NCBI GenBank assembly: GCA_951406725.2
Contig: OX597820.1
Location: 116,126,001 to 116,190,000, forward strand
Source: Octopus vulgaris
Taxonomy: Eukaryota
DNA length: 64,000 nt
Direction of reading: 5' to 3'
Shown: in pieces, positions 14,382-59,262 of the stretch
Layout: every line of letters starts with the position of its first letter
Numbering within the stretch: position 1 is the stretch's first letter
Position numbers and translations under genes: made by a program
The notes under the pieces: generated by a model
What the model saw: the letters and a program-made list of their open reading frames with translations, nothing else
The model's database searches: none
Told to the model about the DNA's origin: nothing

Positions 14382-14850
14382 ATGCAACTAACATGTGTGT
14401 GGAAAAAAGCTGACCTCATTATCAAGGCTAATGGAGCATAAAAGAGTCCACACAGGTGAACGCCCTTATGTTTGCCAGGTCTGCCAGAAAAGGTTCACAC
14501 AGAAGGCTCATCTGGTCATCCATAAGCGTACACACACAGGAGAGAAACCGTACGCCTGTCATATTTGCCACAAGCGATTTGCCCAGTCGTCGCATCTGAA
14601 TAACCACAAGCGCATCCACACGGGGGAGAAACCTTACTTTTGTAATGTGTGCAACTTAGGCTTTAGTCGGAAACAGAGACTGGAGTTACATGTACTACAA
14701 CATGCACAGCAGAAGAGTGCAAACAGTCAACCAATAAACAATAACGATGATGTAAACAGTACGAACAGTAATGATAACAAATCTGTTGCATTTACGTCGG
14801 AAGCTGAAGCTGCGTACCAGCGTCCTCTATTAGATTCTACACAGTCACAG
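14382..14850 (+). CDS. C2H2 zinc-finger transcription factor (Ikaros/Hunchback-like), exon with four N-terminal fingers; start uncertain because of an apparent frameshift near 14395
   Basis: CGKKLTSLSRLMEHKRVH-TGERP-YVCQVC..H-TGEKP-YACHIC..H-TGEKP-YFCNVC..H; donor CAG/GTTTGT after 14850 (phase 0); upstream acceptor TTTTCAG at 14314; candidate ATGs at 14382 (out of frame as assembled) and 14431. Confidence 0.85.
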
Positions 14851-15760
14851 GTTTGTTATTGTCCTTCTATCATGTTTCTTGTGTCGATCTCCGAAATTTT
14901 TTCACTTCTTCTATTTGAAATGTTTTTGTCAAATAGACACAGGCATGGCTGTGAGGTTTAGAAGCTTGCTTCTGAACCACTTGATTCAGGGTTCAGTCTC
15001 ATTGTGCAACACATGTGACCCTGGGCTGATCAAAACCTTGTGAGTGGATTTGGTTGACTCAAACTGAAAGAAGCCCATCGTGTGTGTGTGTGCGTGCATG
15101 CATAAATGTGTGTGTGTGTTGGTATCTCTTTGCCTTGACATTGTGTGATTATTGTAAATGAGTTTCACTGTTATACAAGTGGTGTCCTTCCCTTCTAACT
15201 TCTGTGAAAACATGTCCAACTATAGGGAAAAATTACTTTACTTGGAGACAAGGGAGGGTTGGTAACAGGAAGGGCAACCAAATTCTTTCTGACCTAAGCT
15301 TAGAAATGTGGACATTAAAACGATGATGATGATCGTTAAATTTTGATCTCTTTTAACATTTGAAGGTTTAATTATTGCATAAGATGTCCTGCTACCTAGG
15401 TTTGTTATTGACTAATTAATATAAGTATTTAAAAGGAGTTATAGCAAACTTAATATTGGACGGAATAAAGTTAAATGCCTTTGACTTTTCCTAGCCAAAG
15501 GGTTTTTATTTGACCCAGTATTGCTATGCTTTAATTTACAACTTTGTTTTGAGTTCCATGGTTAAAATATTGTTTTAATTTATTGAGGTTTTGATAAAAA
15601 AAAAATGTTTCTAACTTAAAACAAATTTTTAACCAGAGACTAAATGTCTGTTGTTCAAAACGTGGACATCTTAAGACTAAAAACAAACAGTCTACTAAAA
15701 AAGACAAAGTTTTAATAACGCAGCATTTATAAAACAGTTATATAACAGTATAACAATTAT

Positions 15761-24691: not shown

Positions 24692-25057
24692 AATAAATCT
24701 CCTAACGAGATGTAAACAGTAACCGCTCGACAACGTAAAGTGTACTAGTCATTTGAATGTGGCTAGCCACTGGGGGTGGGTGTTACTGAAGCTTATAGCC
24801 CCGGAGATCATCGTCTCCAGCTGGCTTTAGACACACTTTCTGTGCTCTTCTGATATTCGCAAAGGGAGGTCATCCCCTCTCAAAAGCCTAAGTGATACAT
24901 GCGGACTATAGTTTCGAGGTATTTGCCTCTCGTCAACGTAGAGTACAGAAAGTGAGTCTAAAGCCAGCTGAAGACGATGATCTCCTGGGGCTATAAGCTT
25001 CAGTAACACCCACCCCCAGTGGCTAGCCACATTCAGATGGCTAGTACACTTTACGTT
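24692..25057. mobile_element. Penelope-like fold-back element nested in a TTAA-type MITE (24505-25112)
   Basis: Inverted arms about 24730-24846 and 24942-25057; flanking duplication GTGAATAAATAAGCATTA / GTGAATAAGTAAGTGTTA; hammerhead motif in the spacer; relatives at 43069 and 54045. Confidence 0.7.
24900..24940 (-). ncRNA. Minimal type-I hammerhead ribozyme (UUGACGA core)
   Basis: Minus strand TACG TTGACGA GAGG-caaata-CCTC GAAA CTATAG TC CGCA; palindromic stem III, GUC site, one mismatch in stem I. Confidence 0.7.
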
Positions 25058-31204: not shown

Positions 31205-31250
31205 GACACCTGATGAAGGCTGGAGGGTATAACAGCTGAAACGTTGTGTT
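31205..31250 (+). ncRNA. Minimal type-I hammerhead ribozyme (right arm)
   Basis: GACAC CTGATGA a GGCTG-gagggtataa-CAGCT GAAA CG TT GTGTT; loopless palindromic stem III (ACGT); predicted cleavage after 31245. Confidence 0.8.
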
Positions 31251-37874: not shown

Positions 37875-38250
37875 AGGATGAGGATAAAAAGGTTAAAGCC
37901 AGTTTCCATGGGATGAGGATAAAATGGTTAAAGCCATTTTCTGTGGGATAAATATAAAAAGATTAAAGCCAGATTCTGTGAGATAAGGATAAATTGGTTA
38001 AAACCAGTTTCTGTGGGATAAGAATAAAACAGTTAAACCAGTTTCCCAGTTTCTGTGGAATAAGGATAAAACAGTTAAAAACCCGTTTCTGTGGGATAAG
38101 GATAAAAACGGTTAAAACCAGTTTCTGTGGGATAAGGATAAAACGGTTAAAACCAGTTTCTGTGGGATAAGAATAAAACAGTTAAAACCAGTTTCTGTGG
38201 GATAAGGATAAAACGGTTAAAACCAGTTTCTGTGGGATAAGAATAAAACA
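37875..38250. repeat. 35-bp minisatellite, about 10-11 copies
   Basis: GTGGGATAAGGATAAAACGGTTAAAACCAGTTTCT recurs at 38127, 38162, 38197, 38232 and upstream. Confidence 0.9.
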
Positions 38251-38720: not shown

Positions 38721-38799
38721 CTGAAAGCATAGAAGGAAGATTCAACATTAATTAATTTTATGCAGTATTTCGTGTTTGTACCACATAAAAAACATCAGT

Positions 38800-41268
38800 G
38801 ATAGTTCCACGTAAAAAGCACCTGTGCTGGTGCCACATAAAAGGCACCTGTGATGGTGCCATCTAAAAAGCACCTGTGGTGGTGCCAAATAAAAAGCACC
38901 TGTGCTGGTACCATGTAAAAAACACCTGTGTTGCCCCCCCCCCCCCCAAAAGCACCTGTGCTGGTTCCACATAAAAAGCACCTGTGCTGGTTCCACATAA
39001 AAAGCACCTGTGCTGGTTCCACATAAAAAGCACCTGTGCTGGTTCCACATAAAAAGCACCTGTGCTGGTAGCACATAAAAAGCACCTGTGCTGGTAGCAC
39101 ATAAAAAGCACCTGTGCTGGTTCCACATAAAAAGCACCTGTGCTGGTAGCACATAAAAAGCACCTGTGCTGGTTCCACATAAAAAGCACCTGTGCTGGTT
39201 CCACATAAAAAGCACCTGTGCTGGTGCCACGTAAAAAGCACCTGTGCTGGTAGCACATAAAAAGCACCTGTGCTGGTTCCACATAAAAAGCACCTGTGCT
39301 GGTAGCACATAAAAAGCACCTGTGCTGGTAGCACATAAAAAGCACCTGTGCTGGTTCCACATAAAAAGCACCTGTGCTGGTAGCACATAAAAAGCACCTG
39401 TGCTGGTTCCACATAAATAGCACCTGTGCTGGTAGCACATAAAAAGCACCTGTGCTGGTAGCACATAAAAAGCACCTGTGCTGGTTCCACATAAAAAGCA
39501 CCTGTGCTGGTAGCACATAAAAAGCACCTGTGCTGGTTCCACATAAAAGCACCTGTGCTGGTAGCACATAAAAAGCACCTGTGCTGGTTCCACATAAAAA
39601 GCACCTGTGCTGGTAGCACATCCAAAAGCACCTGTGCTGGTAGCACATAAAAAGCACCTGTGCTGGTTCCACATAAAAAGCACCTGTGCTGGTAGCACAT
39701 AAAAAGCACCTGTGCTGGTTAGCATAAAAAGCACCTGTGCTGGTTCCACATAAAAAGCACCTGTGCTGGTAGCACATAAAAAGCACCTGTGCTGGTTCCA
39801 CATAAAAAGCACCTGTGCTGGTAGCACATAAAAAGCACCTGTGCTGGTAGCACATAAAAAGCACCTGTGCTGGTGCCACGTAAAAAGCACCTGTGCTGGT
39901 AGCACATAAAAAGCACCTGTGCTGGTTCCACATAAAAAGCACCTGTGCTGGTAGCACATAAAAAGCACCTGTGCTGGTGGCACATAAAAAGCACCTGTGC
40001 TGGTGGCACATAAAAAGCACCTGTGCTGGTAGCACATAAAAAGCACCTGTGCTGGTTCCACATAAAAAGCACCTGTGCTGGTAGCACATAAAAAGCACCT
40101 GTGCTGGTAGCACATAAAAAGCACCTGTGCTGGTTCCACATAAAAAGCACCTGTGCTGGTAGCACATAAAAAGCACCTGTGCTGGTTCCACATAAAAAGC
40201 ACCTGTGCTGGTAGCACATAAAAAGCACCTGTGCTGGTAGCACATAAAAAGCACCTGTGCTGGTAGCACATAAAAAGCACCTGTGCTGGTAGCACATAAA
40301 AAGCACCTGTGCTGGTTCCACATAAAAAGCACCTGTGCTGGTAGCACATAAAAAGCACCTGTGCTGGTTCCACATAAAAAGCACCTGTGCTGGTAGCACA
40401 TAAAAAGCACCTGTGCTGGTAGCACATAAAAAGCACCTGTGCTGGTTCCACATAAAAAGCACCTGTGCTGGTAGCACATAAAAAGCACCTGTGCTGGTTC
40501 CACATAAAAAGCACCTGTGCTGGTTCCACATAAAAAGCACCTGTGCTGGTGCCACTTAAAAAGCACCTGTGCTGGTTCCACATAAAAAGCACCTGTGCTG
40601 GTTCCACATAAAAAGCACCTGTGCTGGTAGCACATAAAAAGCACCTGTGCTGGTTCCACATAAAAAGCACCTGTGCTGGTTCCACATAAAAAGCACCTGT
40701 GCTGGTAGCACATAAAAAGCACCTGTGCTGGTTCCACATAAAAAGCACCTGTGCTGGTTCCACATAAAAAGCACCTGTGCTGGTGCCACGTAAAAAGCAC
40801 CTGTGCTGGTAACACATAAAAAGCACCTGTGCTGGTTCCACATAAAAAGCACCTGTGCTGGTGCCACGTAAAAAGCACCTGTGCTGGTAGCACATAAAAA
40901 GCACCTGTGCTGGTAGCACATAAAAAGCACCTGTGCTGGTAGCACGTAAAAAGCACCTGTGCTGGTACCACGTAAAAAGCACCTGTGCTGGTTCCACATA
41001 AAAAGCACCTGTGCTGGTTCCACATAAAAAGCACCTGTGCTGGTTCCACATAAAAAGCACCTGTGGTGGTTCCACATAAAAAGCACCTGTGCTGGTAGCA
41101 CATAAAAGCACATGCGCTGGTGCCATGTAAAAAGCACCTGTGCTGGTACCACGTAAAAAGCACCTGTGCTGGTACCACGTAAAAAGCACCTGTGCTGGTA
41201 GCACATAAAAGCACATGCGCTGGTGCCATGTAAAAAGCACCTGTGCTGGTACCATGTAAAAAACACCT
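38800..41268. repeat. 26-bp minisatellite, roughly 95 copies
   Basis: Unit GCACCTGTGCTGGT(TC/AG)CACATAAAAA; explains the 835-aa and 879-aa periodic ORFs (26-aa period = 3 units). Confidence 0.97.
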
Positions 41269-41450
41269 ACTACTCACTGTAAAGTGGTTGGCATGAGGAA
41301 GTGCATCCAGTTGTAGAAATCTTGCCAAAACAGACAATTGGTGCCTGGTGTAGTTCTCTGGATTGCCAGCTCCTGCCAAACCATCCAACCTATGCCAGCA
41401 TGGAGAACAGATGTTAAATGATGATGATGATGATGATGATGACGGTGATG
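41268..41450 (+). mobile_element. Short retroposon family C core directly after the 26-bp array
   Basis: AGTGGTTGGCATGAGGAAGTGCATCCAGTTGTAGAAA...CCAGCATGGAGAACAGATGTTAAA(TGA)n. Confidence 0.8.
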
Positions 41451-41767
41451 ATTTCACTCCAAAAGTTTGCAAATAGTGATGAATGGATTTTGAAAAATGC
41501 AACTGATTGACTGATTAACCGCATGATTAACCAAACAATTGATATAATCAATTGGTTAAGTAGTTAACCAATTGACAAATAATAAAGAAGTGAAATATAA
41601 CCAGTGCATGTGTTTGTTAATGACATAATGACTCTTCTGAAACCCAGTAAAAGTAATGACAGACTATTTGAAATGTGAAGCTGTTTGGTAGTGCATCATG
41701 AGCTGTTAAAGTAGATGTTAATCTTTGAGAAAGTTAAAGAAAACTGAGATGTGATAATTAATTAGAC

Positions 41768-54044: not shown

Positions 54045-54320
54045 TAATGTAAAGTATACTAGCCATCTCAATATGGCTAACCACTAAGGGTGGGTGTTAC
54101 TGTAGCTTGTAGCCACAGGAGATCATCGTCTCCAGCTGGCTTTAGGCACATTTTCTGTGCCCTTATGGTATTTGCCTAAAGCCAGCTGGAGACGATGATC
54201 TCCTGGGGCTACAAGCTACAGTAACACCCACCCTTAGTGGATAGCCATATTGAGATGGTTAGTATACCTCACATTGTCGTGCAGTTACTGTTTACATCTC
54301 GTTCAGAGATCTATTATTAC
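54045..54320. mobile_element. Penelope-like fold-back, same family as 24692-25057, truncated before the hammerhead; lies inside a hAT-like MITE starting at about 53872
   Basis: Arms about 54045-54149 and 54173-54276 are inverted; one-sided tail GTTTACATCTCGTTCAGAGATCTATT matches the 24.7-kb end; host starts CAGAGATTCTCAAACTTTTT. Confidence 0.7.
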
Positions 54321-56980: not shown

Positions 56981-57024
<44 letters not shown>

Positions 57025-57350
57025 TACGACGGGCTTCTTTCAGTTTCCGTCTACCAAATCCACTCAGAAGGCTTTGGTCGGCCCGAGGCTATAGTAGAGC
57101 TGCCCAGGGTGCCACGCAGTGGGACTGAACCCGGAACCATGTGGTTGGTAGACAAGCTACTTAGCACACAGCCACTCCTATATATATATACGACGGGCTT
57201 CTTTCAGTTTCCGCCTACCAAATCCACTCACAAGGCTTCGATCGATCCGAGGTTATAATAGAAGACATTTGCCCAAGGTGCTACGATGTGGGACTGAACC
57301 CGGAACCATGTAGTTGGGAAGCATGCTTCTTACCACACAGCTGCACCTCC
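56765..57350 (-). mobile_element. SINE family A, full copy plus adjacent 5' half copy
   Basis: Copies at 56765-57179 and 57190-57350. Confidence 0.85.
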
Positions 57351-57914
57351 GCTTGAGTTTCCATGGAGAGAGAGAGAGAGATAGAAAGAGAGAGGGAGAG
57401 AGAAAGAAAGATAGAGGGAGATAGAAAGAGAGAGGGAGAGAGAAAGAGAGGAGAGAGAGTGAGAGAGAGAGAAGGAAAGTAACTAAAAGCGGTCTTCCCA
57501 GTGCAGCGTCACTATGGCCGAATCGTTAGTCCACCGGGCACGTCCGTCTTAACGTCCTCAGTTCAAATGCTGCCGAGATCGACTTTGCCTTTCATTCTTT
57601 CAGGGTCGATAAAATAGTACCAGTTAAGGTACTGGAGTCGATGTAATCGACTTACCCCCTCCTTCCAAAATTGCTGGTCTTGTTTCAGAATGTCAAACTG
57701 ATATTATATTATTAGTGATGAGTGAAGTGGGAAGCTCAAACACTACCCTAGACGGTACAAACCCCGATGTTTTTATTAGAATGAAAGTATTACGGAGATG
57801 TACTTGCATAGCAAGTGACCTGATCTGAGATCGCGTGCTGGAAGGTGTTTATAAACCATTTAAGAAACACACAAAAACCGTTAGATTCACTTCAACATTT
57901 AAATTTAAATTTAA

Positions 57915-58309
57915 CTAGCAGTATCGCCCGGCGTTGCTCGGGTTTGTAAGGGAAATAACTATATAAGCATTTTTAGAGATGTAAAGTATAATAGCCATCT
58001 CAATATGGCTAACCACAAAGGGGGTGTTACTGTAGCTTTTTACGTTCTGAGATTTAATAATAAATTTTTAGAGAGTTACTTCCCTTATATATGCCAAAAA
58101 TGCATTAAAAAATGGGAAAAATTTATGGTAAATTTTTTTAAAAGTCGTAGACTCATCGTAGACGCACGCTAATACCCAGAAGGGCTCGATATAAATCATG
58201 ACTATAAGATACCCGGTTTTGGTTAAACTGCACCGCAAAATGTGGGAGTAGTTAGGAATCTAAATCGTAGGAGACAGACAGCACACAACCTCACTTTTAT
58301 ATATAAAGA
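57915..58309 (-). mobile_element. Non-autonomous Helitron, copy 1
   Basis: Minus strand 5' TC ... subterminal hairpin CCCGAGCAACGCCGGG ... CTAG 3'. Confidence 0.85.
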
Positions 58310-58826
58310 CTAGCAGTATCGGCCGGCGTTGCTCGGGTTTGTAAGGGAAATAACTATATAAGCATTTTTAGAGAGTTACTTCTTTTATAGATGCCAATTC
58401 GGGCTTTCTTAGCCATTTCTGTTTTGGTGTCTTCAAGCCATGAAGTCGTTGTTCTAAAAGAACGCTGGTCTCCTTGACAACGCATTACGACGTTGATTTC
58501 CTTAAACTCCCTTCCCCACAGCTTCACGAGGGAGGGAAGAAGGGGGAGAAGCAAACACAGGTGCAGGTGTTTGAGTGTGGACGCCAACTCCGCCGCCATC
58601 GACACACGAAAAATTATGCATTAAAATGGAATAAAAAATGATGTTAAATTATTTTTAAAATCGTAGACTCATCGTAGACGCGCGCTAATAGCCAGACGGG
58701 CTCGATATGAATCACGACTATAAAATACCCGAATTTGGTTAAACTGCACCGCAAAATGTGGGAGGAGTTAGGAATCTAAATCGTAGGAGACAGACACTCA
58801 CACAACTACAGTTTTATATATATAGA
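58310..58826 (-). mobile_element. Non-autonomous Helitron, copy 2 (head-to-tail with copy 1)
   Basis: 5' TCTATATATATAAAACTGTAG ... hairpin ... CTAG; the pair sits between A and T with no TSD. Confidence 0.85.
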
Positions 58827-58877
58827 TTTGTCAAAATATTTTCGTCGCTTTGAGACCGCGACCTGTTCACTGACAAA
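58827..58877 (-). ncRNA. Hammerhead-like motif with G3:C8 core (left arm)
   Basis: Reverse complement of 58895-58945, differing only in the stem II loop. Confidence 0.6.
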
Positions 58878-58894
58878 TTCCGTGCTGCCGGAAT

Positions 58895-58945
58895 TTTGTC
58901 AGTGAACAGGTCGCGGTCTGAAAGCGACGAAAATATTTTGACAAA
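58895..58945 (+). ncRNA. Hammerhead-like motif with G3:C8 core (right arm)
   Basis: TTTGTCA GTGAACA g GTCGC-ggtctgaaa-GCGAC GAAA ATAT TT TGACAAA; 7-bp stem I, 5-bp stem II, palindromic stem III. Confidence 0.62.
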
Positions 58946-59103
58946 TTAAATTTAAATTTATATGTTGAAGTGAATCTAACGGTTTTTGTGTGTTTCTTAA
59001 ATGGCTTATAAACACCTTCCACGCTGCAACGAAAGTATTGTTGTGGAGAAATGAGAAGCTGCGAGTAGACTTCACACCCTAGTCACAACTCACTGCAGCC
59101 TAT

Positions 59104-59262
59104 TGCAGGCATGGACATCTTTTTTGGGAGAAGCGGGCCACATGAAACATGGATCATCATCAAGCGGGCCGCTCTATTAAAAAAAAAAATTGGAGGTAAT
59201 TTTCCGTTACGCGTGCTCTTCAGAAAATCCCGCGGGCCGCAATTTGCCCATAGTTGGCCAGT
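59104..59262. mobile_element. hAT-like MITE
   Basis: CAGGCATGGACA... / ...TTGCCCATAGTTG ends with internal GCGGGCCGC motifs; relative at 61826-62598. Confidence 0.55.

Follow-up and report, generated by a model that had tools for sequence, protein, structure and literature searches.

The closest described relatives of the motif considered here are the minimal hammerhead ribozymes of Penelope-like elements (PLEs). In the parts covered here of the paper by Cervera and de la Pena (2014; PMC4209133), these have a type I layout, an extra nucleotide at 9/10.1, a G10.1-C11.1 pair, an AU-rich flank and a palindromic helix III that implies dimers, and pairs of motifs are found on opposite strands. Counted by eye, 53 of the 56 PLE motifs listed there have C3:G8, two have U3:A8, one has U3:G8 and none has G3:C8; U17 occurs in 24 of them, the cleavage triplet UUU in one (from Crassostrea), and the extra nucleotide, H in the consensus, is G in one. 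Such minimal motifs show low activity. Natural hammerheads with U3:A8 are described, in the sections covered, for the Cercyon PLEs of Schistosoma (PMC4209133) and by Perreault et al. (2011; PMC3088659). They resemble the present case in that covariation at 3:8 became fixed in repeat families and was missed by the first descriptor.

The reversed pair, G3:C8, is known as a laboratory mutant. According to the sections covered of PMC11167929 (where Martick and Scott 2006 is cited), the double change C3G/G8C partly restores cleavage in the hammerhead of the Anolis PAc PLE, which needs the element's protein, and insertion by the Anolis PLE tested did not need cleavage in vitro. An earlier note on the DNA described below had stated that the double swap keeps partial activity, and for this hammerhead that is what was found. 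One published search treated a change of C3 or G8 as disqualifying (PMC3088659), and a search of PLEs started from a cuganga descriptor, looser cores also being tried (PMC8557442), as far as the portions covered describe them. We found no report of a natural G3:C8 hammerhead in those parts of the literature that our search covered; Lunse et al. (2017), on dimeric PLE hammerheads, lies outside that scope and could list such a variant.

Here the core of the Anolis mutant is found as a natural, genome-wide sequence. The stretch analysed, referred to below as the window, is 64 kb of DNA from Octopus vulgaris with about 38% GC, rich in microsatellites and with few real ORFs. We assign a probability of about 0.68 to the reading that it contains a G3:C8 minimal type I hammerhead which is the family form of a high-copy repeat, likely a PLE pseudo-LTR, and for which weak cutting after U17 is predicted in the parent RNA, likely only when aided by a dimer or a protein.

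Architecture of the motif

The right-hand copy of the motif occupies 58895-58945 on the forward strand. Its stem I has 7 bp (58895-58901/58939-58945) and leads into the core GUGAACA (58902-58908), in which G3 is at 58902 and C8 at 58907. An extra G at 58909 (position 9.1) separates the core from stem II, which has 5 bp (58910-58914/58924-58928), is closed by G10.1-C11.1 and carries a loop II of 9 nt. The GAAA box (58929-58932) runs into the self-complementary helix III sequence AAUAUU (58932-58937; AUAU, then U16.1 at 58937, with the pair A15.1-U16.1). The predicted cut lies directly after U17, at 58938, the cleavage triplet being UUU. A second copy at 58827-58877 on the reverse strand mirrors the first, with G3 at 58870, C8 at 58865 and a predicted cut after 58834; the two differ at one base, in loop II. 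Stems I and II form the minimum-energy fold of each arm taken alone (z -2.4 and -2.5).

The letters of 58827-58945 stand as the earlier note had written them, and so does its central observation that GUGAACA departs from the CUGANGA box at exactly positions 3 and 8, which holds in both arms; in both, the 3:8 pair is the Watson-Crick-compatible G3:C8. The motif is classed as a variant because it fails the literal CUGANGA test, and searches built on that box would pass over it. It also has all the additional elements of the consensus described for PLEs: the extra nucleotide, the G10.1-C11.1 pair, a palindromic helix III and an AU-rich 3' flank. Two features about which the note had been cautious, the UUU triplet and the extra nucleotide, have precedents in the sections covered of PMC4209133, the former in the Crassostrea motif and the latter as a feature of the PLE consensus, with the difference that the nucleotide here is G. 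The 3:8 pair itself sets the motif apart from the PLE motifs counted above. U3:A8 is reached by two transitions, with a purine still at 8, whereas G3:C8 takes two transversions and reverses the pair. Judged by its architecture, the motif is very probably a true hammerhead homologue, and it likely resembles the PLE minimal hammerhead in its predicted working, as a variant of that form.

Frequency of the motif by chance

We searched the window with a descriptor that allows any Watson-Crick pair at 3:8 and that was written when the motif and the minimal form from the literature were already known to us. It matched three times in the 64 kb, namely at the two motifs of the fold-back and at a motif with canonical C3:G8 at 31210. 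Across 150 dinucleotide shuffles there were 13 matches with stems of at least 3 bp each (3+/3+), one at 4+/4+ and none at 5+/5+; the motif has 5/7. It thus exceeds chance, at fewer than one in 150 windows, a partly post hoc figure that is an upper-end estimate of significance, since knowledge of the motif guided the descriptor.

An Rfam scan of the window at the gathering score gave no hammerhead match, and at E<=10 the swapped motif matched generic hairpin families only. The canonical motif at 31210, which serves as a control, is also missed at E<=10, and a phage motif described below (L020) is likewise without an Rfam hammerhead match, so that the silence of Rfam is uninformative. The control is a C3:G8 minimal hammerhead at 31205-31250 on the forward strand, with an extra A and U17, and belongs to another repeat family. 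It lies near TAA microsatellites and is likely to represent another PLE family.

The repeat family

Of 24 sequencing runs on the list, four were used. Contigs from three of them (X15, X2 and X6, from three studies with three organism labels) were aligned to 58878-59117 at 80% likeness, giving 1071, 10069 and 4223 aligned contigs, respectively. Letters are listed from 2%; contigs drop rare variants, and diverged sister families would not align at 80%. Within these limits, no other letter reaches 2% at position 3 (58902) or 8 (58907) in any of the three sets, and the same is true of positions 3-9, 9.1 and 13-17, for which there is no variant at or above 2%. The earlier note had proposed checking on genomic copies whether G3 and C8 are the consensus of the family, and they are. 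G3:C8 is therefore the normal state of this repeat family, which is present in very high copy. Among the aligned contigs we saw no sister family with C3:G8 or with a single change that would speak for the compensatory change suggested in the note. The constancy of the two positions demonstrates descent from a master copy and is no evidence of selection acting on them.

The variants that do occur within the motif comprise six CpG-type changes (1-7.5%, G12 included) and five sites of non-CpG variation. Four of the latter are in loop II (58917, 58918, 58920 and 58922); the fifth, A>G at 58941 (13-23%), converts a U-A pair of stem I to U.G and so keeps the pairing. Tolerated changes make up 42 of the 145 non-CpG substitutions that are possible, and all four of the substitution sites observed are of the tolerated kind (P 0.007); with the deletion included the figures are five of five (P 0.002), and four of the five sites fall in the loop (P 0.004), all these P values being post hoc, based on depth-weighted contigs and dependent on the assumption of uniform mutation. 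The pattern suggests that the parent lineages kept both structure and core while carrying G3:C8.

As a rough guide to abundance, and not as copy number, the summed depth over the core may be compared with that over unique flank in the two DNA-type runs: 1.9 million versus 33.8 in X2 (a ratio of 5.7 x 10^4) and 152,000 versus 4.13 in X6 (3.7 x 10^4). The fourth run, X22, consists of raw reads and unexpectedly gave none aligned to 58878-59117 from 1.9 Gb, despite bearing the species label of X1 and X15 and despite the great abundance of the family in other runs so labelled. CpG-type changes at 58913-58929 stand at 1-3% in X15, lower than the 2-7.5% of the two DNA-type runs. We presume, as a guess only, that X15 is RNA; the lower rates could mean that the expressed copies are younger or that the run comes from a different species.

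Anatomy of the locus

The sequence 58827-58945 and its reverse complement agree in 94% of 121 aligned columns. The earlier note had placed a hammerhead in both arms of a fold-back, and the motifs are indeed in both arms. The fold-back is wider than it had noted, with 57839-57914 and 58946-59021 identical at 74 of 76 positions, and it is an insertion structure of this locus, not the functional unit.

The right repeat copy (58889-59030, forward strand) consists of the motif followed by an AU-rich stretch, and homology to the family ends at about 59029-59030. The left copy, on the reverse strand, is in two pieces: a 5' piece at 58827-58888, the first letters of which match the upstream loose ends of the family, and a 3' piece at 57815-57914, made up of the 74/76 match to 58946-59021, a short deletion and then tail-like family sequence. 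By eye, from the match to the loose ends, family sequence beyond about 59029-59030 is present in the left copy and absent from the right one. The two copies meet head to head between 58888 and 58889. A 6-base duplication at 58956 is common to both arms and missing from many family contigs; the arms therefore derive from one event and are not independent evidence, as the note had cautioned.

The depth at the centre of the palindrome in X2 is 101.6, about three times that of the flank (33.8), as against more than 10^6 in the arm, and the loose ends of the family at 58889 carry other letters than the palindrome does. The fold-back is thus not the repeat unit. These results largely refute the otherwise conceivable, and now very improbable, explanation that we are dealing with a MITE-like fold-back DNA element whose subterminal hairpins are hammerhead-like by chance. 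The long, near-perfect inverted arms and the want of an Rfam hammerhead match would fit such an element, but its palindrome should then be the unit that is repeated; in addition, the chance rate is below one in 150 windows and Rfam misses the canonical motif at 31210 too.

Among the joints listed (15, of 27 in all), nine connect opposite strands, running from 58889-58894 to points spread over 58925-58994; each rests on one to three contigs, and 58889 is also the start of the homology in the reference. This pattern corresponds to the inverted, variably truncated 5' copy seen in PLEs. The PLE insertions of Craig et al. (2021), in the parts of PMC8557442 covered, are similar in being head-to-head inverted pairs of which just one copy has additional 3' sequence, and differ in that here both copies are very short and contain no coding sequence. 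We suggest that an inverted, 5'-truncated copy was placed beside the 5' end of another copy in a single insertion, which would have produced the fold-back.

Two further elements would then have entered the left copy. Both were classed as Helitron-like by their ends. The first, at 58310-58826 on the reverse strand, has the TC start and the CTAG end with its hairpin and lies between A and T just past stem I of the left motif; the second, at 57915-58309 on the same strand, is in tandem with it, belongs to the same family and has TC and CTAG ends. From their sequences these Helitron-like insertions appear to be non-autonomous, later than the ribozyme and unrelated to it. One of them entered the other at its 5' end, and parts of their interior are found again at about 24735-25054 and 54047-54274.

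With motifs on opposite strands, one transcript contains one motif and its antisense. The predicted pairing probability of the stems falls from 0.2-1.0 with one arm to 0.00 with both arms in one RNA, for which a long hairpin of about -93 kcal/mol is predicted. Transcription through the locus would accordingly be predicted to yield a long double-stranded hairpin; the copy at this locus is probably inert, because such a hairpin hides the ribozyme in read-through RNA.

Predicted cleavage in the parent element and alternative explanations

How might the motif work elsewhere? G3 and C8 would form the same tertiary Watson-Crick pair as C3 and G8 do. The helix III duplex AAUAUU is predicted at only about -0.2 kcal/mol, too weak to form alone, and so would form between two copies, as for tandem pseudo-LTRs. 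Given a PLE transcript that carries pseudo-LTRs in tandem, the AAUAUU palindromes of two motifs would be expected to join, and the cut would follow after U17. Two-strand folding run without constraints did not return the dimeric helix III, a crossed fold that the model cannot represent. The four departures from the usual form (swapped pair, extra G, UUU triplet and weak helix III) may together mean no activity. On balance, we regard real, if weak, cleavage in the parent element as having slightly better than even odds, and a PLE-type origin of the repeat as quite probable.

The most serious alternative is that the motif derives from a hammerhead but does not cleave, stems I and II having been kept as a protein-binding site or as part of an internal promoter after the core lost its activity. 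We consider this unlikely, even though the swap rescues cleavage only in part, insertion in vitro did without cleavage (in the sections covered of PMC11167929) and minimal PLE motifs are poor cleavers even when canonical (in those of PMC4209133). A dead core would be expected to drift, yet here the two changes together give back a Watson-Crick pair, and at the remaining core bases no non-CpG variant reaches 2% in the contigs. Another possibility, which we hold to be improbable, is that an active G3:C8 hammerhead resides in a short non-coding, non-autonomous element of a few hundred bases, retrozyme- or SINE-like, with no gene of its own and moved in trans by a PLE. Agreement among the loose ends fades some 11 letters upstream of 58889 and 10-20 letters downstream of 59030, as though many copies were short, the putative tail peptide has no protein match, and animal retrozymes have been argued to derive from PLEs (bioRxiv 10.64898/2026.07.22.740005, in the part covered). 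Heavy 5' truncation also predicts short copies, however, and retrozymes are tandem arrays, each unit with a canonical type I hammerhead, whereas this locus has an inverted pair of the minimal form.

An overlapping constraint would account for the swap in another way: G3 would have been fixed as part of a 3' splice site or a start-site motif at 58894-58902, and C8 would have followed to keep the pair. A pyrimidine run plus CAG at 58894-58902 on the forward strand does end exactly on G3, like a splice acceptor created by the swap, and the intron of Drosophila virilis Penelope ends at helix I (PMC4209133, as covered here). Short AG motifs are common, though, and among the contigs neither a spliced read nor a joint was observed to end at 58902, which leaves this explanation with little probability. 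We retain the reading of a G3:C8 PLE-type hammerhead, with weak, aided cleavage in the parent RNA, as the preferred one.

Significance

The PLE minimal hammerhead is already known; what appears to be new, relative to the literature searched, is natural G3:C8 as the form of a whole family. If the preferred reading is true, the natural set of 3:8 pairs (C:G, U:A and now G:C) is completed by an example in what would be tens of thousands of copies, and the tertiary pair, so far established by structures and by mutants, gains evolutionary support from an animal genome. Many genomic hammerheads may have gone uncounted, since published searches reject changes at C3 or G8 or start from cuganga. The result also bears on an open question, whether PLE hammerheads must cut efficiently: the great success of a family whose core works only partly in the laboratory suggests that weak or gated cleavage suffices.

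G3:C8 motifs outside this genome

The family pattern has no match in metagenome contigs and none in viral contigs. A single match in a prokaryote genome has C3:C8 and lacks the second half; it is taken as chance. For G3:C8 with an extra nucleotide in metagenomes, type I stems (the only type tested) are present in none of at least 120 loci listed. Viral contigs gave 29 raw pattern matches for G3:C8, 43 for G3:G8 and 66 for C3:C8, and with the first below the other two there is no excess of the swap in viruses. A loose stem filter passes one of 29, three of 43 and seven of 66, respectively. The one G3:C8 match, in the 170-kb phage contig L020, is a type I motif at about 92-161 on the reverse strand, with stems of 5/5/10 bp and located between genes; it alone among the filtered viral matches looks like a true hammerhead (20 pairs versus at most 13). 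It shares G3:C8 with the motif in the octopus window and is otherwise unrelated to it. A wider proposal can be put forward only tentatively: that one of this genome's most abundant retroelement families has spread with a working natural G3:C8 hammerhead, deliberately slow and gated by a dimer or a protein, and that hammerheads with the reversed pair form a hidden class, extending from phages to animals, which CUGANGA-based searches skip. Some Penelope-like families reported to be without hammerheads may in that case carry them.

Search for a linked gene

The repeat is likely, if not certainly, a PLE, and no RT or GIY-YIG gene linked to it was found at this locus. Pfam gave no RT or GIY-YIG domain in the 10 window ORFs examined (of 38), and the putative start of an ORF in the left tail gave nothing at E<=1 among 12 candidates. 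Two database matches of tail peptides were discarded as translations of tandem repeats. Within the portions covered, the family motifs are absent from the supplements and main texts of PMC8557442, PMC13282606 and PMC8967140, the Hydra consensi being covered only partly.

Other features of the window may be recorded. An ORF at 14395-14961 on the forward strand encodes C2H2 zinc fingers and is probably an exon. A 35-bp array extends over 37876-38248 (10.4 copies) and a 26-bp satellite over 38778-41268 (95.8 copies), the long ORFs at 38748-41502 being translations of the satellite. Two tandem copies of a repeat that we take to be SINE-like lie at 57015-57348.
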